This document shows, one piece after another, positions 2,739-61,566 of a stretch of 64,000 bases of DNA. Source of the stretch: an uncultured Gammaproteobacteria bacterium (GTDB taxonomy: Bacteria > Patescibacteriota > Patescibacteriia > Magasanikbacterales > GWA2-37-8); assembly GCA_964634875.1 (NCBI GenBank), contig CAZWKA010000008.1, positions 978 through 64,977 of the forward strand, read 5' to 3'. The notes beneath the pieces were generated by a model that saw only the letters and a list, made by a program, of their open reading frames with translations, was not told the origin of the DNA and did not search any database. A program made the position numbers and the translations under genes. The number at the start of each line of letters is the position of its first letter. The first letter of the stretch is position 1.

Positions 2739-3260
2739 CTATAACGACCCTAAAAAATAAAAGAGGCTTGAAACGAGCCCGGCAACCACCGCACCACCAA
2801 CAATATCGAGCGGATAATGAACACCGGCATATACTCTCCCCCACGACACCCAAAGCGCCCCAAGAGCTAGCGGCCACGCTACCGGAAGATGGAACAAAAT
2901 CGCAGCAAAAAAGATCAACCAAGCGGTCATGCCGTGGTCAGATGGAAAGGACTTCCAAGACATTAAGGGGGTAAAGAGCAGCTTGCTTTGTGGATAGGTA
3001 ACGTGGGGCCGAGGTTCCCGGACAATTTTTCCGATACCCATATCAATCAACCAACCCAACGACCAAACACAGCCGATAAAGAGCAGTTGCCCAAACGACG
3101 TAAAGCGGTCAGGCCAATTTTCAATCAAAATTGAAGCGGCCAAGTAGCCTCCCATGGCCAAAATAACATATTCCGCACCAACTTTACCAAAAAAATCTAG
3201 GGCTGCGCTGCGGCCAACCAAAGAATTAATTTTGAAAAAAAGACGAGTATTGAGGCTCAT
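2739..3260 (-). CDS. PAP2-family phosphatase (undecaprenyl-diphosphatase/phosphatidic acid phosphatase type 2)
   Basis: Three PAP2 motifs are present (REPRPH.., PSDHG, VYAGVHYPLDIVGG). Multi-TM, 173 aa. Confidence 0.75.
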   Translation of the reverse strand: MSLNTRLFFKINSLVGRSAALDFFGKVGAEYVILAMGGYLAASILIENWPDRFTSFGQLLFIGCVWSLGWLIDMGIGKIVREPRPHVTYPQSKLLFTPLMSWKSFPSDHGMTAWLIFFAAILFHLPVAWPLALGALWVSWGRVYAGVHYPLDIVGGAVVAGLVSSLFYFLGSL

Positions 3261-3363: not shown

Positions 3364-3436
3364 GCGCCCATAGCTCAGCGGTTAGAGCGCCACCCTTATA
3401 AGGTGGATGTCGATGGTTCAATTCCATCTGGGCGCA
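3364..3436 (+). tRNA. tRNA-Ile, anticodon UAU (reads AUA)
   Basis: Manual cloverleaf. Acceptor GCGCCCA/UGGGCGC; D-arm GCUC..GAGC; anticodon stem CCACC/GGUGG with loop CUUAUAA (U33, anticodon UAU, A37); T-arm GAUGG-UUCAAUU-CCAUC; discriminator A. No encoded CCA. Confidence 0.8.
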
Positions 3437-3460
3437 CATTTTATCTATAACCCAGAGCAT

Positions 3461-32354: not shown

Positions 32355-32361
32355 ATTAACT

Positions 32362-32828
32362 CTATTACTGGTAATCGCCGGGCAAAAAGGCTCGGAGGAA
32401 AGTCCGAACACCCTTGTTTTTAACAAGACAATGGCAGTGGGTAACCCCCACCCCCCGACCTGTGAAGTATCGGGGAGGGACAGTGGCACAGAGACAATAC
32501 TAGCCCCGTCCACTTCGGTGGATGGGACCAAAGGTGAAAAGTGTATGGAGGTTCTGGTTCTCGAGACCAAAGCTACCATACTCGCCCTGGCTGTGAAGCC
32601 AGTGGCAGTGCTAAACCCTGCCTGGTGCAAGAGCAGCGTGCCGCGAAGCGTCAGAGAGGCGCTTTGCCTGGCGCGAAAAGTTCGCTCGCTTGGCTTGCCC
32701 AAATTCTCACGAATGAAGGCAGCCTGATTGCAACAGTAATGCTGCAACTAGAAAAATGATTATCTTCCCAATCTGTCTGCCGATAGGCAAGCCCGGTTGG
32801 GAAACAAAATTCGGCTTATAGTAATAGC
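32362..32828 (+). ncRNA. rnpB: RNase P RNA (bacterial type A-like), ~467 nt
   Basis: P4 5' strand GGAGGAAAGUCCGAACAC. P4 3' strand ACAAAAUUCGGCUUAUAG pairs with it, including the characteristic bulge. P1 pairing CUAUUACU (32362-32369) with AGUAAUAG (32820-32827). Internal matches to conserved stretches (GGGUAACCCC, AAGGUGAAAAGUG, UAAACCCUGCCUGGUGCAAGAGCA). Promoter upstream and terminator downstream. Confidence 0.8.
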
Positions 32829-32830
32829 GC

Positions 32831-32855
32831 AAAACCTTCCGCAAGGAAGGTTTTG
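32831..32855 (+). terminator. Rho-independent terminator of rnpB
   Basis: CCUUCC-GCAA-GGAAGG followed by UUUU. Confidence 0.55.
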
Positions 32856-45412: not shown

Positions 45413-46354
45413 TTAGGTCGCCAAAAAAGCCTTGATGAGCCGCTCGGCCTCCTCAAGATCATGCGCGTCAAGCCACGTAATCCGTTCATCGCGTTTAAAC
45501 CAGGTTAATTGTCGTTTTGCATAGCGCCGTGTCGCGCCCTGTATTTTTTCGCGTGCTTCAGCCAGCGTTAATTCACCCTGAAGGTAATGGTCAATCTCCT
45601 TATACCCAATCCCCTTCATGCTCGGAAGCTTCCATTGGTAACGCTGCCGTAGTAAATCTTTTGTTTCTTCGATCATCCCTTCTCTAAACTGAGTTTCAAT
45701 GCGTTCATTGATACGCGTATGAAGTTCAGAAAGTGTGCGCCGGATACCCAGTTGAAGAACATTAAACAGGGGCTCGGCTTTTTGCTGCTGATCAGCAAAC
45801 GAACTCCCTGTTAAAATAGCAACCTCGAGTGCCCGGACAACCCGCTGGGGATTCTTAAGGTCAACCTTAGCCGCTGATTTTGCATCAATATTGCGCAGGA
45901 GTTCAACTAGCTCTGGCAAACTTTTGCCTTCTAGCCCATCGCGAAGTTTTTTATTCGGGGCGACAGGAGGCAACGTCAGATTGTCAATAAGTGACCACAA
46001 ATAGAGGCCTGTTCCTCCGACTACAAAAGGAACTTTTCCCCGCTGAAAAATATGCCTAATAGCACTGACAGCCGACTCTTTAAATTGTGCCAAGGTAAAC
46101 TCCTCACCCGGGTCTACCAAATCCATTAAATAATGTGCCACACCACCTACCACGTAGGCTGCAGTGCCTTCTGTCTCGCGCCATATACCCTTAGGCTTTC
46201 CCGTCGCAATAGTCATTTTTTTATAGACCTGACGTGAGTCAGCCGAAATAATCTCCCCATTAAATTTTTTGGCAAGCTTAATACCAAAATCGGTTTTACC
46301 GGAAGCAGTGGGGCCCGCCAGGACAATAATTTTAGGTAATTTTTCTTCAACCAT
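45413..46354 (-). CDS. miaA: tRNA dimethylallyltransferase
   Basis: P-loop GPTASGKT and ..ISADSRQVYK.. motifs of MiaA. 313 aa. Confidence 0.9.
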   Translation of the reverse strand: MVEEKLPKIIVLAGPTASGKTDFGIKLAKKFNGEIISADSRQVYKKMTIATGKPKGIWRETEGTAAYVVGGVAHYLMDLVDPGEEFTLAQFKESAVSAIRHIFQRGKVPFVVGGTGLYLWSLIDNLTLPPVAPNKKLRDGLEGKSLPELVELLRNIDAKSAAKVDLKNPQRVVRALEVAILTGSSFADQQQKAEPLFNVLQLGIRRTLSELHTRINERIETQFREGMIEETKDLLRQRYQWKLPSMKGIGYKEIDHYLQGELTLAEAREKIQGATRRYAKRQLTWFKRDERITWLDAHDLEEAERLIKAFLAT

Positions 46355-46379: not shown

Positions 46380-48128
46380 CTAATTATGTGTTCGGTCTTT
46401 AATTTCTTGCTGTAACTTTTGGACAAAATCAGCGGCCATCATTTTAAGCTGCTCTTCTTGACCACGTACCCGAATTGTCCAAGTTTCTCCAGCTGCTTCA
46501 CGATCGCCAATAACTGCGATATACGGAATTTTTTGCCCAGCGGCCTTGCGGACTTTTTTACCCACTGTTTCATCTGTCTCATCAATCATTACCCGAATAC
46601 CAGCAGCTCTAAACTGCTGGGCTGCTGTTTTAGCAGCTTCAACATGCTTCGCTGAAACAGGCACGATACCGAGCTGTACTGGAGCTAACCACAAAGGAAA
46701 AGAACCGGCATAATGCTCAATGAGGATGCCCATAAAACGTTCAGGAGAACCAATGAGCGCGCGATGGATCATGACCGGATGTTTTTCAACACCATCAGCG
46801 TCGACATAGGTTAAACCAAACCGGACGGCCATATTGAGGTCAAGCTGCACTGTGGAAACCTGCCACTGTCGGCCAAGCGAATCTGTAGCCATAATGTCCA
46901 TCTTGGGACCATAAAAAGCAGCTTCCCCTTCGGCGGCCTCAAACTCAATTTTATTTTCTTCCAAAAGTTTTCTCAAGATCTGCTGGGCTTTTTCCCAAGT
47001 CGCGTCATCACCCAAATACTTTTCTTTTTGTGCTGGGTCGCGGAGCGATAAACGGATCCAGTATTTAAGGCCATACGTGGAAAGTGCTTTAGTAATAACT
47101 TTGAGCACAGCGTTAAATTCAACCTCAATTTGGTCTTCGCGGCAAAAACAATGCCCATCATCTTGAGAAAAACATCGGAGACGTGTCAAACCTGACAACT
47201 CACCAGGACGCTCATCACGGTACAGATTGGCGAAATCCGCAAAACGCAACGGCAGGTCTTTATAGCTGCGCATTTGTGAAGCATAGATCTGCGTATGCTG
47301 GGGGCAGTTCATCGGCTTTAAATAGAACTCCTCTTCCGAATAATGCGATACGACCCGGAACATATCGTCCTTGTACTTGTCATAGTGTCCCGAAATTTTA
47401 AACAATTCTGCCTTATTAACATTGGGAGTATGCACTTCTTCGAAACCAATTTCCTGGTTTAACTCACGTGAAAAACGGACAATCTCATTGCGAACTGCTG
47501 TACCCCGAGGCGTAAATAGCGGCATGCCGGGGCCGACTAAATCTGAAAAAACAAACAACTCTAATTCTTTGCCAAGCTTACGGTGGTCACGCTTTTTAGC
47601 TTCCGCCAAACGGGTAAGGTGCAGATCGAGCTCTTCGGCGGTTGGCCAAGCTGTACCATAAATACGAGTTAGCATTTTATTTTTTTCATCCCCTCGCCAA
47701 TAAGCCCCTGCAATCGACAACAATTTAAAATATTTCAACTCACTGCTCGGATTTTCACTGTGCCCACCACGACAGAGATCGGAGTAGGTTCCAGAGGTGT
47801 AGAACGTAAGTGTCTGTCCTTCACCCGCAAATTCATTAATTAATTCTTCTTTATATTCATTGTCTTTATAAAATTCTTTGGCCTCAGCCACACTTACTTC
47901 TTTACGTTCAAATCCTGTCCAGGTTGGAACGAGCGCATGCATTTTTTCTTCCAAACGAACAAGGTCTTCTTCGGTGATTTTTTCAAGACCGAAATCAAAA
48001 TCATAATAAAAACCATTTTCGATTGCCGGGCCAATAGTGCGCTTAGCATTTGGCCATAGTTCCAAAACTGCAGCGGCCAAAAGATGTGCAGCGGAGTGAC
48101 GGAGATGGTCAAGTTCTTCTTTGTTCAT
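46380..48128 (-). CDS. thrS: Threonine--tRNA ligase (N-terminally short form lacking TGS)
   Basis: HLRHSAAHLLA editing-domain motif, class II core motifs, and a C-terminal anticodon-binding domain. 582 aa. Confidence 0.9.
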   Translation of the reverse strand: MNKEELDHLRHSAAHLLAAAVLELWPNAKRTIGPAIENGFYYDFDFGLEKITEEDLVRLEEKMHALVPTWTGFERKEVSVAEAKEFYKDNEYKEELINEFAGEGQTLTFYTSGTYSDLCRGGHSENPSSELKYFKLLSIAGAYWRGDEKNKMLTRIYGTAWPTAEELDLHLTRLAEAKKRDHRKLGKELELFVFSDLVGPGMPLFTPRGTAVRNEIVRFSRELNQEIGFEEVHTPNVNKAELFKISGHYDKYKDDMFRVVSHYSEEEFYLKPMNCPQHTQIYASQMRSYKDLPLRFADFANLYRDERPGELSGLTRLRCFSQDDGHCFCREDQIEVEFNAVLKVITKALSTYGLKYWIRLSLRDPAQKEKYLGDDATWEKAQQILRKLLEENKIEFEAAEGEAAFYGPKMDIMATDSLGRQWQVSTVQLDLNMAVRFGLTYVDADGVEKHPVMIHRALIGSPERFMGILIEHYAGSFPLWLAPVQLGIVPVSAKHVEAAKTAAQQFRAAGIRVMIDETDETVGKKVRKAAGQKIPYIAVIGDREAAGETWTIRVRGQEEQLKMMAADFVQKLQQEIKDRTHN

Positions 48129-48137
48129 AGTAAAAAA

Positions 48138-48677
48138 TTATTGTTTTGAATAAATGCTCGGTAAGTTTCGTTTTAATTGTTTATGATCAAGCCCGTAACC
48201 AATGACAAAATTATTGGGAATACTGAAACCGATATATTCAATTGGGGTGCTGAACTTGAAGCATTCATGCTTGAAGAGCAGCGTTGCCACGCGCACACTC
48301 TTGGCTCCAGCATCTTCGACATGCTGACGTAAAAAATGTATTGTTTGGCCACTATCCACAATATCTTCAACAATCACTACGTCGCGCCCAGCGAGCGAAA
48401 CTCCCGGTGCTTGTATTAACTCTACAGTACCCGAAGAAACCTCTTCGTTACCATAACTTTTTACCCGAACATAATCAATCTCCAGATCAATCGTCTGTAT
48501 TTCGCGCACCAGATCAGCCAAGAAAATCACAGCGCCCTTCATTACCGCCAAAACAACTGGCGTACTACCAGATAAGTCACGCTCAATTTCTATAGCTAAT
48601 TCTTTGATTCTGTCCTTAATTATAGTCTCTGTATAGAGCTCTTTAAAGACCGTGCCGTCACTGTGGAGTGTATTCAT
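48138..48677 (-). CDS. hpt: Hypoxanthine(-guanine) phosphoribosyltransferase
   Basis: PRPP-binding motif VVIVEDIVDSGQT. 179 aa. Confidence 0.85.
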   Translation of the reverse strand: MNTLHSDGTVFKELYTETIIKDRIKELAIEIERDLSGSTPVVLAVMKGAVIFLADLVREIQTIDLEIDYVRVKSYGNEEVSSGTVELIQAPGVSLAGRDVVIVEDIVDSGQTIHFLRQHVEDAGAKSVRVATLLFKHECFKFSTPIEYIGFSIPNNFVIGYGLDHKQLKRNLPSIYSKQ

Positions 48678-48892
48678 AGATAAAAATACCCCGATGCCTC
48701 CTACGAAAGAGACATCGGGGTCTTAAGGATATTAAGACGGTTCCACCCGAATAGTTAGCTTTTAACCAAATTGTCCTGTACACCCTGACATTGTCAGCAC
48801 TAAGAGTGGTACCATACCGAACAGGGCTGGGCTGGTTCTTAGCCAGATGTACTAAGCTATTTTTATCAAAAAAGAGCCGACCTGTCAAATCA
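48678..48892 (-). promoter_or_regulatory. ~215-nt structured leader of hpt ending in an intrinsic-terminator hairpin (candidate riboswitch/attenuator)
   Basis: On the minus strand, the hairpin CCCCGAUG-(16 nt)-CAUCGGGG (48689-48720) is followed by UAUUUUU and then immediately by the hpt ATG. There is no room for a promoter between the terminator and the ATG, so hpt must be read through it. The upstream ~170 nt is GC-balanced and stem-rich. Confidence 0.4.
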
Positions 48893-50032
48893 CTAATTCA
48901 TATTTTTAACCACAACCTTAATGCGGTCTGGAACACTCGGCGCACTCCGCATCCAGCCGGGTGAAAACTGCACGTCAACTCCCGAAACGTGGTCAAGCCC
49001 CAAAATATAACGCTGGATATCTTCCTTCTTTTTACCCAAAAAATTCTTAGCTAAAAGTTTATCTCCATTAGCATCAAGCGTTACAACCACATCCTGAGTA
49101 ACCGTTAAATCAGCCGTTGATCTCGTTATATCGTACGAACCAACATTAATCCGAGGTTCTTTGGTAAGCGATAATAATTTTTCTGACGAACTATCAAATT
49201 TGGTCGAGAGCTCGTCATTGATAAGTTTAGCCAGGTCAGCAGGATTGTAACTAACCACGAGAAGCGTATTGGTGCCTTGAACGCTGAAATTTGCCACTTC
49301 ATCGCCAACCTTTTGGCTGGCAGTGACGTCTTGGCCTACCAAAACAACCGCGCGGCTTGTACTAGTATCTTGGATGGTTGCTAAAAAGGCATCTTTTACT
49401 TTTTCTTTATAATCCTTAAGCGCATTGGCAATATCGTCTTCACTCAGCACACCAACTTTTTTGGCACCGCCAGTCATCGGTGCAGTACTTACAGCATAAA
49501 TGCTTTTTTGTTTTTCAAGCGCGAGCCCCGGGATAGTAAATTGGCTTGCCGGAATATCACTACCTGAACCTGGTACGTCAGCATACACCGTGGCATCAAG
49601 CTGGCCGTTTGCAGGCACAATAACCGTATCAGATAAACGGAATAAAATACCACTGGCCGTCAGGAGGCGGGTGGTCGCAACAAGTGTTTGTGGGGCACTG
49701 GTTTTGTTATAGAGCGTCACCTGCCCTCCGGCACCGCCTTCAACAACCTTAGTACCTGTTGGATAATATGTATTTGACCACACAAATTTGGTTGAGCTTA
49801 CCGTCCCTACGATCGCGGTTGCACCAGGGGTTTCGGACGCAACCCTTACCGTCAACGGCACGCTCTGGCTGTCTTCTTTAGAAACAACCACTATTGTTGC
49901 TTTTTTGGAAGTGATAAAAACAACCACGCCCAAAATTATAACGGTGAGGAATAAAAAAGACAGGGCAATGGTCTTGTAAAAACGTACTGGCGGCTCCGGG
50001 GCCGGGGCAGTTTCCATGCGACGGATCATCAT
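48893..50032 (-). CDS. Secreted/membrane-anchored hypothetical protein
   Basis: N-terminal TM (..ALSFLFLTVIILGVVVFITS) followed by a ~330-aa Thr/Ser/Val-rich extracytoplasmic region. Confidence 0.45.
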   Translation of the reverse strand: MMIRRMETAPAPEPPVRFYKTIALSFLFLTVIILGVVVFITSKKATIVVVSKEDSQSVPLTVRVASETPGATAIVGTVSSTKFVWSNTYYPTGTKVVEGGAGGQVTLYNKTSAPQTLVATTRLLTASGILFRLSDTVIVPANGQLDATVYADVPGSGSDIPASQFTIPGLALEKQKSIYAVSTAPMTGGAKKVGVLSEDDIANALKDYKEKVKDAFLATIQDTSTSRAVVLVGQDVTASQKVGDEVANFSVQGTNTLLVVSYNPADLAKLINDELSTKFDSSSEKLLSLTKEPRINVGSYDITRSTADLTVTQDVVVTLDANGDKLLAKNFLGKKKEDIQRYILGLDHVSGVDVQFSPGWMRSAPSVPDRIKVVVKNMN

Positions 50033-50104
50033 AGGGTAAAAAGTTACTTAAAAATTGGTAATAAATTATACATAGCATACCACAACTAGAGCTATGTAAA
50101 AAGT

Positions 50105-50149
50105 CCCCAATGTCAAAATCCTAATTTCTAATGTCAAATTTTTTGACAT
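50105..50149. repeat. Palindromic repeat element, copy 1 (CCTAATTTCTAATGTCAAA + inverted arm)
   Basis: AATGTCAAA occurs twice in direct orientation (50107-50115, 50129-50137), followed by the perfect palindrome AATGTCAAA-TTT-TTTGACATT (50129-50149). The 16-mer CCTAATTTCTAATGTC differs by 1 nt from the copy at 61979-61994. Confidence 0.5.
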
Positions 50150-50174
50150 TTGGCATTACAACTTTGAAATTTCA

Positions 50175-51926
50175 TTATTCAGTGACACGGAATACCTCTT
50201 CCACACTAGTAATCTTGTCGAGAGCTTTCAAAAGGCCATCCTGCACCATGGTTACCATCCCATTCTTAACGGCCAAATCCTGGATACTGTACTCTGAAAC
50301 TTGGGCACTCAAAATTACCTGCTCAATCTCTTTGCTCATAACAAAAATTTCATAAATACCAATACGACCTTTGTACCCCAGGCCGCTGCACGCTCCGCAA
50401 CCCTTTCCTTTATAAAAATGTAAGTTATTAAGGTCAACATTCTTCTTTTCCACTTCCGGCAACGTCTCAAATACTTGTTGTACGCGCTCGGCAAACTCCG
50501 GACCGAGTGGAGCCTCTTCCCGACATTTCTCACAAATACGGCGGACTAAACGTTGGCCAATAACCGAATTTAAAGCCGGAGCCAACAGAAACGGTTTCAC
50601 TCCCATCGACAAAAAACGAGGGATAGCGCCAGAGGCACTGTTGGTATGGATAGTTGAAAGCATTAAATGGCCAGTCAAGGCGGTTTGGATAGCGATTTCA
50701 GCTGTTTCGAGGTCACGGATTTCACCAACCATACAAATATCAGGATCCTGACGCAAAATACTTTTGAGCCCCTTAGCAAAAGTATAATCGTGAGCCGAAT
50801 CAACTTGACTCTGGTTTATGCCTTCCATCTTAATTTCCACCGGATCTTCCAGGGTAATGATATTAACACCCGGCTTATTAAGCGTACGAAGTATGGCGTA
50901 CATCGTAGTTGTCTTACCTGAACCCGTGGGACCAGTCGTAATAATCATGCCATTTGGGCGCTCAACTTCACGCTTTAGGCGGCTGTATGCATCGCCACGA
51001 AGCCCTAGGTCATCATAGGTAACTCCTTTACTACCGCTATGCAAAATACGCATAACCACACTTTCACCATACGTCGTCGGCATAGTTGAAACACGCACAT
51101 CCAGGCTGCTTGACGATAATTGCAGTGTTACCCGGCCATCCTGGGGCCGGTCAGAAACATTAATTTTTAAAGCAGCTAAAAGCTTGATGCGTGAAATAAA
51201 ACGTTTCCACTGCTCTTTAGGAAGTGTGGCCACATCATGCAATACACCATCGATACGGTAGCGCACCGCGATCCCCTTTTCTTCGGCCTCAACGTGCATG
51301 TCCGACGAGTTTACCTTAAGCGCCGACGCGATCATCAAGGTCAAGATATCAGTAATAGAAACATTCTTAAATTTTTCTTCAAGACTCGTAAGGTTTTCAA
51401 TGCCCACCCCAAATTTTTCTAACTCTTCGTCAGTAATGTTAATATCTTTAGTGATCGGTTTAACGATCGGCAGGTTCGCATAATAACCCAGTGCCTTTTC
51501 AAGGCTGTGCTCCGAAATAATATAGATACCAACTCGAGCGTGAACGCGTTCACCCAGCTGATAAGCCAATTCATCGAGCTCCGAGCTTTGGGCAAGTACG
51601 CCCAAGCGTAACTCATCACCGTTATAAAAAAAACAGACCATCCGGCGCTCCCGTGCCTCAGCTTCAGGCAGAACACGCAAGGCTTCGGCAGAGATTGGAA
51701 AACCAGTCAGGTCAATATACGGCAAACCAACGCCTGCCGCCTGACTTGCAACTAAATTTTCTTGTTCCTTCAAACCAATCTCTTTCATTTTTACCGCAAA
51801 CTTGCCCTCAGTGGTTTGGTTGTCAGGTAGTGCAGATGAAGCCTTTGAGCCTGGTTGACCAGGACCACCAGGCGTCCCTGGCGAAGTTTTTTTAACCAGA
51901 TCGCTAATTGACGGAAAATCAGACAT
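50175..51926 (-). CDS. pilB: Type IV pilus / type II secretion assembly ATPase (PilB/GspE family)
   Basis: Walker A TGPTGSGKTTT, a Pro/Gly-rich N-terminal tail, and the C-terminal tetracysteine motif C..C..CGACSGLGYKGR. Confidence 0.85.
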   Translation of the reverse strand: MSDFPSISDLVKKTSPGTPGGPGQPGSKASSALPDNQTTEGKFAVKMKEIGLKEQENLVASQAAGVGLPYIDLTGFPISAEALRVLPEAEARERRMVCFFYNGDELRLGVLAQSSELDELAYQLGERVHARVGIYIISEHSLEKALGYYANLPIVKPITKDINITDEELEKFGVGIENLTSLEEKFKNVSITDILTLMIASALKVNSSDMHVEAEEKGIAVRYRIDGVLHDVATLPKEQWKRFISRIKLLAALKINVSDRPQDGRVTLQLSSSSLDVRVSTMPTTYGESVVMRILHSGSKGVTYDDLGLRGDAYSRLKREVERPNGMIITTGPTGSGKTTTMYAILRTLNKPGVNIITLEDPVEIKMEGINQSQVDSAHDYTFAKGLKSILRQDPDICMVGEIRDLETAEIAIQTALTGHLMLSTIHTNSASGAIPRFLSMGVKPFLLAPALNSVIGQRLVRRICEKCREEAPLGPEFAERVQQVFETLPEVEKKNVDLNNLHFYKGKGCGACSGLGYKGRIGIYEIFVMSKEIEQVILSAQVSEYSIQDLAVKNGMVTMVQDGLLKALDKITSVEEVFRVTE

Positions 51927-60564: not shown

Positions 60565-61566
60565 TTATACAAGTCTACGCAACCGCCGCAAAAGTTGATA
60601 TATCCTATACTGGAGCGGCCGAAGAATCAAGTCAAACGTCCCAGGCGTTTCTACAACACTACCACCGAACCCTAATTTGAATCTTGTTACTCCGGCATAC
60701 TGGTGTTTCGGATCATACACATATTCTTCAGTTTCGAGTTTGGAGTTTGGAATCACAAGACGAGGTGCAATCCCAAAAAAATCATACTTTATGTATCCTA
60801 ATTTTTTACCAAGCTTAATCCCCTCCCACTGCAAGAGGTAGGGTGCCATCAGTGAACGGTACTCGTGATCCGATGCGCCGAACAAATACGTGAATGTATC
60901 ACCCGAACCTACAAACACGGCTGTTGCAACAGCTTTTTCTTCATGAACGACCGTAAGTTGTAGACTAAAACTCGAATTAAAAATCGCCTGATAATGCTTT
61001 TCTTCGTGCAACCTGAAACCGTCCCGCTCACCAGTTTTTTTCATGAGCCCAATAAATACGGCGTACTTTTTTTCTGAAATAATTTTTAACCCTTTCTTTT
61101 CAGCCAAACGAATATTGTAGCGAGTTTTTTGGTGCATAGCCGCAAGCAACTCATCTTCGGATTTGGCCAGGTCGAGGATCGTCGTCGTGCGAGGGTTGAT
61201 ATCAATCGATTTTTGATAGTGGATAGTGGATAGTGGATTTTTTACGATAAATTCAGGCTCATATCTAAAAAAAAGACAATCTTTTTTCTTAAGATACACA
61301 GACAAAACGTCAAGTGCTTTTATTCCTTGCTCCTTATTCATTGCTCCTTTCGCAAAAACCGGCCCTTTTGGACAAAAGGCGTACAGCCAGCCAAACGGGA
61401 GTTTGCCATAAACAATCTGAGCCTTTACCACCGCCGTGCCATTTTCCATCACGCTGAGGCGCTCAACCTGCCTTTTCTCTGAAACCAAAATTTCACCCCA
61501 ACCCCAGGATTGCGGGAAAACGCTTGTTTTCCAGTCAGTTTTGTCGCTTTCCAGCCGAATTTTCAT
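60565..61566 (-). CDS. FemAB-family aminoacyl-tRNA-dependent peptidoglycan aminoacyltransferase
   Basis: ..YAFCPKGPV.. and ..YLFGASD.. correspond to the conserved FemX/FemAB motifs (YASKGPV, YxYAGS). 333 aa. Confidence 0.65.
   Translation of the reverse strand: MKIRLESDKTDWKTSVFPQSWGWGEILVSEKRQVERLSVMENGTAVVKAQIVYGKLPFGWLYAFCPKGPVFAKGAMNKEQGIKALDVLSVYLKKKDCLFFRYEPEFIVKNPLSTIHYQKSIDINPRTTTILDLAKSEDELLAAMHQKTRYNIRLAEKKGLKIISEKKYAVFIGLMKKTGERDGFRLHEEKHYQAIFNSSFSLQLTVVHEEKAVATAVFVGSGDTFTYLFGASDHEYRSLMAPYLLQWEGIKLGKKLGYIKYDFFGIAPRLVIPNSKLETEEYVYDPKHQYAGVTRFKLGFGGSVVETPGTFDLILRPLQYRIYQLLRRLRRLV

Follow-up and report, generated by a model that had tools for sequence, protein, structure and literature searches.

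How is hpt, the gene for hypoxanthine phosphoribosyltransferase, controlled in the 64,000-nucleotide (nt) stretch of contig CAZWKA010000008.1 (assembly GCA_964634875.1) that we analysed here and call the window? The question arises from the gap of 215 nt at positions 48678-48892 that precedes hpt, for which the first-pass annotation had proposed a metabolite-sensing leader controlling purine salvage. We conclude that this leader is very probably a T-box attenuator specific for tRNA-Thr, that is, a known mechanism in a reduced form that is missed by the standard RNA models, and that the controlled operon probably comprises hpt, thrS (threonine--tRNA ligase) and miaA (tRNA isopentenyltransferase). 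The leader contains the sequence and structure elements of a T-box, its terminator and antiterminator exclude each other, its structure is supported by covariation, and in relatives it is linked to thrS. Homologs of the threonyl-tRNA synthetase (ThrRS) place the organism in the Patescibacteria, or candidate phyla radiation (CPR), the closest taxon-named relatives being Candidatus Magasanikbacteria with 66-68% identity. The leader, hpt, thrS, miaA and the open reading frame (ORF) of 379 amino acids (aa) that precedes the leader are all on the minus strand (Table 1).

Terminator, antiterminator and promoter

An intrinsic terminator with an 8-bp stem had been noted immediately before hpt. Its hairpin and T-run are real (AUUUUUAU directly follows the hairpin, which alone has a folding energy of -27.2 kcal/mol), although the stem had been drawn too short and in fact has 15 base pairs (bp). 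Simple terminator-like patterns are not enriched in the region, where 3 were found and 2.5 are expected; that the hairpin is not a chance match follows from its conservation throughout the orthologous leaders, where 6 of its pairs have changed in a compensatory way. Only 5 nt separate the end of the T-run at 48682 from the hpt start codon ATG at 48677, which confirms that no space is left for a promoter between them. A GGAGG within the 3' arm of the terminator was considered as a Shine-Dalgarno sequence and rejected, being 19 nt from the ATG and not conserved. The approximately 170 nt preceding the hairpin are non-coding and structured, as had been supposed. The whole leader folds with z = -3.0 relative to shuffled sequences, and a mechanically called 76-aa ORF with a TTG start (48658-48888), which spans the leader, was rejected as a gene since its frame is not kept in the orthologs, where it is disrupted by indels of lengths not divisible by three, one of them a 17-nt deletion of a hairpin.

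Upstream of the terminator, CGGGUGGAACCGUC at 48748-48735 represents a T-box sequence, delimited in Table 1 as UAUUCGGGUGGAACCGUC. It is unchanged in all relatives, and GGGTGGAACCG, GGGUGGAACCG and GGGTGGNACCG each have exactly one occurrence in the window. This conserved, GGGUGGNACCGNG-like sequence is located on the 5' side of an antiterminator formed by two helices, A1 and A2, that flank a 7-nt bulge of the UGGN type. With -11.5 kcal/mol, the antiterminator is the minimum free energy (MFE) fold of the nascent RNA until the terminator 3' arm is made, the terminator being 16 kcal/mol more stable. Because the 3' strands of A2 and A1 serve again within the terminator 5' arm, the two structures are mutually exclusive. 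This overlap is identical in 13 of 13 window-type (W-type) relatives. A1 is invariant, and the inner A2 pairs show compensatory changes.

Both states were evaluated on an alignment of 11 distinct W-type leaders, from which RNAalifold recovered Stem I and the terminator. For the hand-drawn antiterminator state, 91.7% of the cells are paired and 13 of the 25 pairs changed on both sides, a value reached by none of 500 shuffles, with only 31-48% of the cells paired when the partners were slid by 1-3 columns. The terminator state is 89.9% paired, with both-side changes in 15 of 28 pairs (again 0/500 shuffles as high), and the slid controls over both states range from 31 to 50%. The covarying parts are Stem I, its apical hairpin, helix A2 and the terminator. 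The comparative alignment that the first-pass annotation had named as a check thus yields a covariation-supported structure in the orthologous leaders. A covariance model built from the 11 leaders, R1, has one match in the window (148.8 bits, 48684-48864), and it also matches leaders outside the seed, namely L130 (118.5 bits), L175 (94.9 bits) and L166, plus the hairpin-type leaders described below.

It had also been argued that transcription of hpt must start upstream and pass a conditional terminator. Both parts of this argument hold, the terminator having an exclusive antiterminator and the leader being preceded by a conserved promoter of the form TTGACA-N17-TAAAAA, located directly past the stop codon of the upstream gene. 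TTGACA and TTTTTGATAAAAA are unchanged in all orthologs, and TTGACA-N17-TAnnnT equivalents occur at the same distance in the remaining W-type leaders; we infer a transcription start of the leader near 48853. The same promoter bears on the alternative that the hairpin is merely the terminator of the 379-aa gene and that a promoter of hpt overlaps it, an arrangement to which the position of the hairpin, on the same strand as the gene at 48893-50032 and downstream of it, would conform. The earlier note had assumed otherwise, and the evidence agrees: 170 nt ahead of the hairpin, a conserved consensus promoter separates the stop codon of this gene from the leader, and the upstream gene of L098 has a separate terminator ahead of the promoter. 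In addition, the promoter scan detected no promoter-like site in the 5-nt interval between the hairpin and the ATG, and the hairpin covaries along with the alternative antiterminator. We consider such a simple terminator very improbable.

Stem I, the threonine codon and the antiterminator bulge

The 5' half of the leader folds into a short Stem I of the intermediate type. From its base upward it comprises the helix GCUAAGA/UCUUAGU, an internal loop with ACCA on the 5' side and ACCAC on the 3' side, the invariant GCC/GGU pairs, a CA/AU loop and a variable apical hairpin. The lower helix has both-side changes in 7 of 7 pairs and the apical hairpin in 2, the apex ranging from a 3-bp to a ~12-bp hairpin without conserved letters. 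The invariant letters of Stem I are ACCAGCCCA and AUGG, and the module CCAGCC...GGUACCAC is found at a single place in the window, 48806-48835. An alternative pairing of ACCA with UGGU, which leaves a 5-nt bulge, was rejected with -9.9 versus -12.8 kcal/mol for GCC/GGU. The GCC/GGY pairing is also supported over ACCA/UGGU because in L130 the change of GGU to GGC turns a G.U into a G-C pair, and the rejected pairing is further disfavoured by L166, in which UGGU is replaced by AGGU and the 5' A is missing.

The threonine codon ACC, followed by a conserved purine, is displayed in the 3'-side bulge of Stem I, and this ACC-A is unchanged in the 11 W-type leaders. A codon plus purine in Stem I is thus accompanied by the cognate gene in the operon, thrS. 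The ACC on the 5' side of the loop was rejected as the specifier: L166 lacks it, which identifies the 3' ACC as the specifier.

Other elements of the 5' part are more variable. The outer helix P1 encloses Stem I and a small variable hairpin in the MFE fold; P1-like helices of differing sequence occur in L142, L098, L102, L151 and L130, and their lack in L086, L116 and L158 indicates that P1 is not universal. The stretch GGGUGUACAGGACAAUUUGG, which the first-pass annotation had likened to a ykkC-class core, turned out to be the 3' strand of this optional helix together with a linker. The small hairpin is dispensable, being shared in the same form by the window, L081 and L084, replaced by another hairpin in L102 and L103, and missing in L086, L098, L116, L142, L151 and L158. 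A Stem III-like hairpin, weak as a helix (-2.6 kcal/mol), is embedded in a conserved A-rich linker (ACAAUUU ... AAAAGYUAA), whose letters are kept.

Comparison across leaders relates the displayed codon and the bulge to the regulated gene. All 32 thrS-linked leaders examined have a UGGA bulge; the Thr codon is presented by a 7-nt apical loop (C/A)(U/C)ACCAA in at least 14 of them and by the window module CCAGCC…GGUACCAC in 13. The hairpin-type relatives have ACC in the 7-nt loop CUACCAA, on hairpin stems that covary. Leaders of four other synthetase genes, serS, ileS, aspS and glyS, have the CGGGUGGNACCGUC core in common with the window and carry apical-loop specifiers (Table 1). An F-box-like CCCGUUA is found in the serS, ileS and aspS sister leaders, and those of serS, ileS and glyS are below the Rfam T-box threshold in a scan that left aside the aspS locus L139. 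In bacterial tRNAs the discriminator bases are generally A73 in tRNA-Ile, G73 in tRNA-Asp and U73 in tRNA-Gly. The match of codon to gene and of bulge to discriminator (N being A in the Gly, C in the Asp and U in the Ile leader) is as expected of T-boxes. The window leader is predicted to have as its cognate a tRNA-Thr with anticodon GGU and, from the UGGA bulge, discriminator U73, and the UGGA at 48745-48742 would pair with this tRNA's 3' UCCA end in the uncharged state.

Conservation of the leader upstream of thrS

Orthologous loci L081-L093 were reached via Hpt homologs at 66-73% identity. They conserve both the leader and the synteny T2SSE ATPase - 379-aa ORF - leader - hpt - thrS - miaA, and the gene order thrS-miaA is seen again in relatives. 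Three further relatives, L096, L097 and L098, with ThrRS 70-73% identical, have no hpt, and the T-box core, antiterminator and terminator stand directly upstream of thrS. To a metagenome scan with the pattern CGGGTGGNACCGTC-N(4-34)-GACCCCG at least 120 stretches responded, and 80 loci were examined. About 46 of the 80 loci listed are AT-rich leaders with terminators, the remainder being chance matches in high-GC coding DNA, and at least 28 of these about 46 leaders have thrS 140-1400 nt downstream (among the matches listed). In at least 25 metagenome loci a homolog of the 379-aa ORF (25-81% identity) directly precedes the thrS T-box, usually past a T2SSE/PilB-type ATPase, and its product appears, from these comparisons, to be a conserved CPR protein of unassigned function with fixed synteny.

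The position between the T-box and thrS is filled differently in different lineages. A GNAT-family acetyltransferase of 178-184 aa or a 329-aa protein is encoded there in L102 (5186-5740), L172 (4432-4968) and L123 (1932-2921), and further loci with a gene between T-box and thrS are L106, L158, L163, L164, L165 and L174; the interval from the attenuator to thrS seems to have received insertions repeatedly. Among the loci listed, hpt occupies this interval in the window's clade only, and therefore the leader belongs to thrS and hpt is the insertion. Judged from these gene arrangements, hpt is best described as a passenger that entered between an ancestral thrS T-box and thrS. As a side observation, the Hpt orthologs P0002, P0005 and P0006 (192-199 aa; L081 4001-4579, L091 1420-1998 and L092 256-855) are annotated with N-terminal extensions that reach back through the T-box terminator hairpin, and these are probably mis-called start codons.

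The linkage to thrS is also what separates the T-box from a metabolite riboswitch (purine, phosphoribosyl pyrophosphate (PRPP), guanosine tetraphosphate (ppGpp) or other ykkC-class) controlling hpt. A riboswitch would explain why the leader adjoins a purine-salvage gene, and the order promoter - structured leader - terminator is typical of one. However, hpt-less relatives retain the leader before thrS, a GNAT gene replaces hpt in other lineages, and what is conserved in the sequence is the T-box core and the Thr codon. No Rfam riboswitch family was found at E <= 10, and the purine, ykkC, PRPP and ZTP models, named earlier for this check, gave no match at gathering score or at E <= 10 to the whole leader or to either half. 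The control set consisted of 80 hpt loci from other phyla, obtained in a genome-contig scan through Hpt relatives at <=50% identity, which are too distant to serve as orthologs: a T-box core upstream of hpt was found in 0 of these 80, and R1 matched none of the 41 that were searched with it (L001-L040 and L094). The proposed purine-sensing ligand class thus gives way to the T-box sequence, the antiterminator bulge and the Thr specifier of a leader that tracks thrS and not hpt, and we assign a riboswitch a practically negligible probability.

We also considered that the element is an independent gene for a trans-acting small RNA, with hpt expressed by incidental read-through. In favour of this, both a strong promoter and a strong terminator belong to the element itself, its sequence is highly conserved, terminator 5' arm included, and prematurely terminated T-box leaders accumulate as small RNAs in other bacteria. 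Nevertheless, conservation of the terminator 5' arm is explained by its second role as the antiterminator 3' strand, the element is always oriented toward and directly upstream of thrS, or of an inserted gene plus thrS, among the loci listed, and there is no space for a separate hpt promoter. A small RNA gene is accordingly a very unlikely explanation, and the T-box attenuator is retained. Signal recognition particle RNA, 6S RNA and a tRNA-like RNA were rejected as well, with no Rfam or ARAGORN match and with the conservation accounted for by T-box features.

Table 1. Positions of the leader elements and neighbouring genes in the window, and of leaders from other loci (locus named in the position column)
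Feature	Position	Strand	Details
T-box leader RNA, ~172 nt	48682-48853	-	putative transcription start to T-run end
Sigma-70-type promoter	48860-48888	-	-35 TTGACA 48888-48883; 17-nt spacer; extended -10 TG-n-TAAAAA 48868-48860 (promoter scan)
Outer helix P1 (optional)	48778-48852	-	GUACAUC 48852-48846 with GGGUGUAC-side 48784-48778; encloses Stem I and small variable hairpin; in MFE fold
Short ('intermediate') Stem I, 45 nt	48799-48843	-	without distal platform
Specifier	48807-48810	-	Thr codon ACC 48810-48808 and conserved purine A 48807; 3'-side bulge of Stem I
Small variable hairpin	48785-48797	-	CUGAC-AAU-GUCAG; between Stem I and P1 3' strand; dispensable
Stem III-like hairpin	48752-48768	-	UGGUUA-AAAGC-UAACUA; Rfam T-box model aligns Stem III here
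T-box sequence UAUUCGGGUGGAACCGUC	48736-48751	-	includes 7-nt bulge UGGAACC 48745-48739
Antiterminator	48715-48750	-	A1 UCGGG 48750-48746 / CCCGA 48719-48715; bulge UGGAACC; A2 GUCUUAA/UUAAGAC 48738-48720
Intrinsic terminator	48682-48721	-	hairpin 48721-48688: 15 pairs (8 G-C), 4-nt loop; T-run 48687-48682
hpt (hypoxanthine phosphoribosyltransferase)	48138-48677	-	NCBIfam TIGR01203 161 bits (cutoff 150); first gene past terminator
thrS (threonine--tRNA ligase)	46380-48128	-	NCBIfam TIGR00418 680 bits; start 9 nt past hpt stop codon
miaA (tRNA isopentenyltransferase)	45413-46354	-	25 nt past thrS; Pfam IPPT on orthologs
379-aa ORF	48893-50032	-	upstream of leader; no NCBIfam match
serS leader	L162 ~2790-2935		specifier UCC; bulge UGGU
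ileS leader	L178		specifier AUC; bulge UGGU
aspS leader	L139		specifier GAC; bulge UGGC
glyS leader	L177		GGC in loop; bulge UGGA

Mechanism, known T-boxes and biological meaning

The elements described above suggest the following course of events. The polymerase would initiate at the conserved promoter just past the preceding gene, and the nascent short Stem I would present ACC and its stacking purine in the side bulge for pairing with the GGU anticodon of tRNA-Thr. When this tRNA is uncharged, its free 3' NCCA end would pair with UGGA of the bulge and hold the weaker antiterminator, permitting read-through into hpt and thrS. When it is charged or absent, the stronger terminator would capture the A2 and A1 3' strands and transcription would stop 5 nt before the hpt ATG. 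By classical T-box logic, termination would be the default, and the antiterminator would require stabilising by the 3' end of the uncharged tRNA. Possibly, miaA is co-transcribed with thrS.

Several points weigh against a functional T-box of this kind. The Rfam model of the family, RF00230, has a gathering score of 93, compared with 13.2 bits for the local match obtained here with the 3' 96 nt alone (model positions 155-219, covering Stem III, the T-box sequence and the antiterminator); only the 3' domain is thus recognised, the 5' half has no Rfam family, and nothing was found at E <= 10 on the whole leader or the 5' half. The threshold of RF00230 was reached by 0 of 18 related loci. The Stem I elbow platform (the interdigitated double T-loop motif, IDTM, made of the distal AG bulge and loop) is absent from the window leader, as are the Stem II S-turn and a IIA/B pseudoknot with its F-box (CCGUYA), the only CCGUC of the leader being inside the T-box sequence. 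Stem I and the T-box sequence are separated by only 47 nt in the window and by about 35 nt in L086. By inspection only, the base of Stem I has no kink-turn (K-turn; GA motif), with just UG joining P1 to Stem I there and no tandem G.A pairs; some relatives have GUUUKA/GA junctions at this place that do not fit the K-turn consensus. The platform and, outside glycine T-boxes, the Stem II domain are regarded as essential for transcriptional T-boxes (PMC7583486), and both are missing from a small RNA that would have to bind tRNA fast and tightly. ARAGORN found no tRNA-Thr gene in the window or in 44 related loci, and U73 and the GGU anticodon are accordingly predictions. Binding of the tRNA, sensing of its charging and read-through are suggested by homology of design. 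Likewise, hpt and thrS would be co-transcribed, judging from the 9-nt gap and the lack of promoter- or terminator-like sites between them.

The leader shares different features with different known systems. With the transcriptional (class I) T-boxes of Firmicutes (e.g. Bacillus subtilis thrS/thrZ and tyrS; RF00230) it has in common a tRNA-responsive terminator/antiterminator design, the 7-nt UGGN-ACC bulge between A1 and A2, a Stem III with a purine-rich linker, a specifier with its purine at the 3' side of a bulge in Stem I, and regulation of the cognate synthetase gene. In contrast to them, it lacks a long Stem I that carries an AG bulge and a distal loop, as well as a K-turn, an S-turn in Stem II, a IIA/B pseudoknot and an F-box; its T-box sequence reads ...ACCGUC instead of ...ACCGCG; the host belongs to the Patescibacteria/CPR; and the first regulated gene is hpt. 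The ileS T-boxes of Actinobacteria in which Stem I is 'intermediate' or 'ultrashort', known from Mycobacterium and Nocardia structures, also have a truncated Stem I without platform and a specifier in either a side bulge (the intermediate form, as in the window) or an apical loop (the short form, as in L096, L097 and L100). Such a truncated Stem I is typical of translational actinobacterial ileS T-boxes, in which the Shine-Dalgarno sequence is sequestered and which rely on a K-turn, on the S-turn of Stem II and on the IIA/B pseudoknot with the F-box (PMC7583486), whereas the window element ends in an intrinsic terminator and has 47 nt and no F-box between Stem I and the T-box.

The glyQS T-boxes of Bacillus, Geobacillus and Oceanobacillus are likewise transcriptional, compact and naturally without the Stem II domain. 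Only glycine T-boxes are known to lack Stem II naturally, which in the case of glyQS was attributed to the strong GGC:GCC codon-anticodon duplex (PMC7583486). Unlike the window leader, which has ACC as its codon and no platform either, glyQS retains the long Stem I, the platform and the K-turn. As for the ykkC-class (guanidine-I/PRPP/ppGpp) and purine riboswitches, the likeness is limited to the layout of a leader with terminator before a nucleotide-metabolism gene; there is no sequence or structure match, the cores differ, and the element follows thrS and not hpt. No paper linking T-boxes with CPR/Patescibacteria was found in the literature, the coverage of which was incomplete, so that this is absence of evidence only.

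These comparisons raise the question of whether the thrS leaders of this group constitute a distinct minimal class of transcriptional T-boxes, in which tRNA-Thr would be recognised without platform, K-turn, S-turn and pseudoknot, via a new decoding module. We regard this as an evenly balanced possibility. The module may be 5'-ACCAGCCCA…AUGGUACCAC-3' or, in sister lineages, the anticodon-loop-like 7-nt CUACCAA.

Some other features of the window were recorded on the way. The gap 50040-50175, which separates the PilB-like ATPase gene from the 379-aa ORF, contains two direct copies of AATGTCAAA and an inverted TTGACATT, and these repeats may represent tandem -35-like boxes or an operator. The Rfam scan of the whole window returned only an RNase P RNA and four tRNAs. 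The former is of bacterial class A (32359-32834, plus strand, 138.6 bits) and is 476 nt long, compared with 367 nt for the model, with several sizeable insertions. A tRNA-Ile with anticodon UAU is encoded at 3364-3437 on the plus strand (ARAGORN; Rfam tRNA 75.7 bits), an uncommon bacterial route for reading AUA, for which most bacteria use a lysidine-modified CAU tRNA. At 60565-61566 on the minus strand a FemAB-family protein is encoded (Pfam PF02388, matched by the identical gene of L220). Members of the family build peptidoglycan cross-bridges from aminoacyl-tRNAs, and the protein represents a further tRNA-dependent function in a small genome.

At the level of this genome, the analysis corrects the view of the locus, with hpt riding on a thrS attenuator and not being under purine control; the insertion of hpt behind the thrS T-box would therefore couple the purine salvage of this lineage to threonyl-tRNA charging. 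More broadly, T-box regulation is extended to CPR bacteria: if the assignment is true, these ultrasmall, host-dependent organisms, about whose gene regulation hardly anything has been charted, control aminoacyl-tRNA synthetase genes by T-box attenuators that sense tRNA. Since the Rfam model misses such elements, the T-box counts outside Firmicutes and Actinobacteria are probably underestimates. With a length of about 150 nt, terminator included, they rank among the smallest transcriptional T-boxes, and these elements do without parts held to be essential (PMC7583486), which makes them natural test cases for the minimum RNA that can decode a tRNA and sense its charging. Should they indeed form a distinct minimal class, this would contradict the view that transcriptional T-boxes require the platform for fast tRNA capture.

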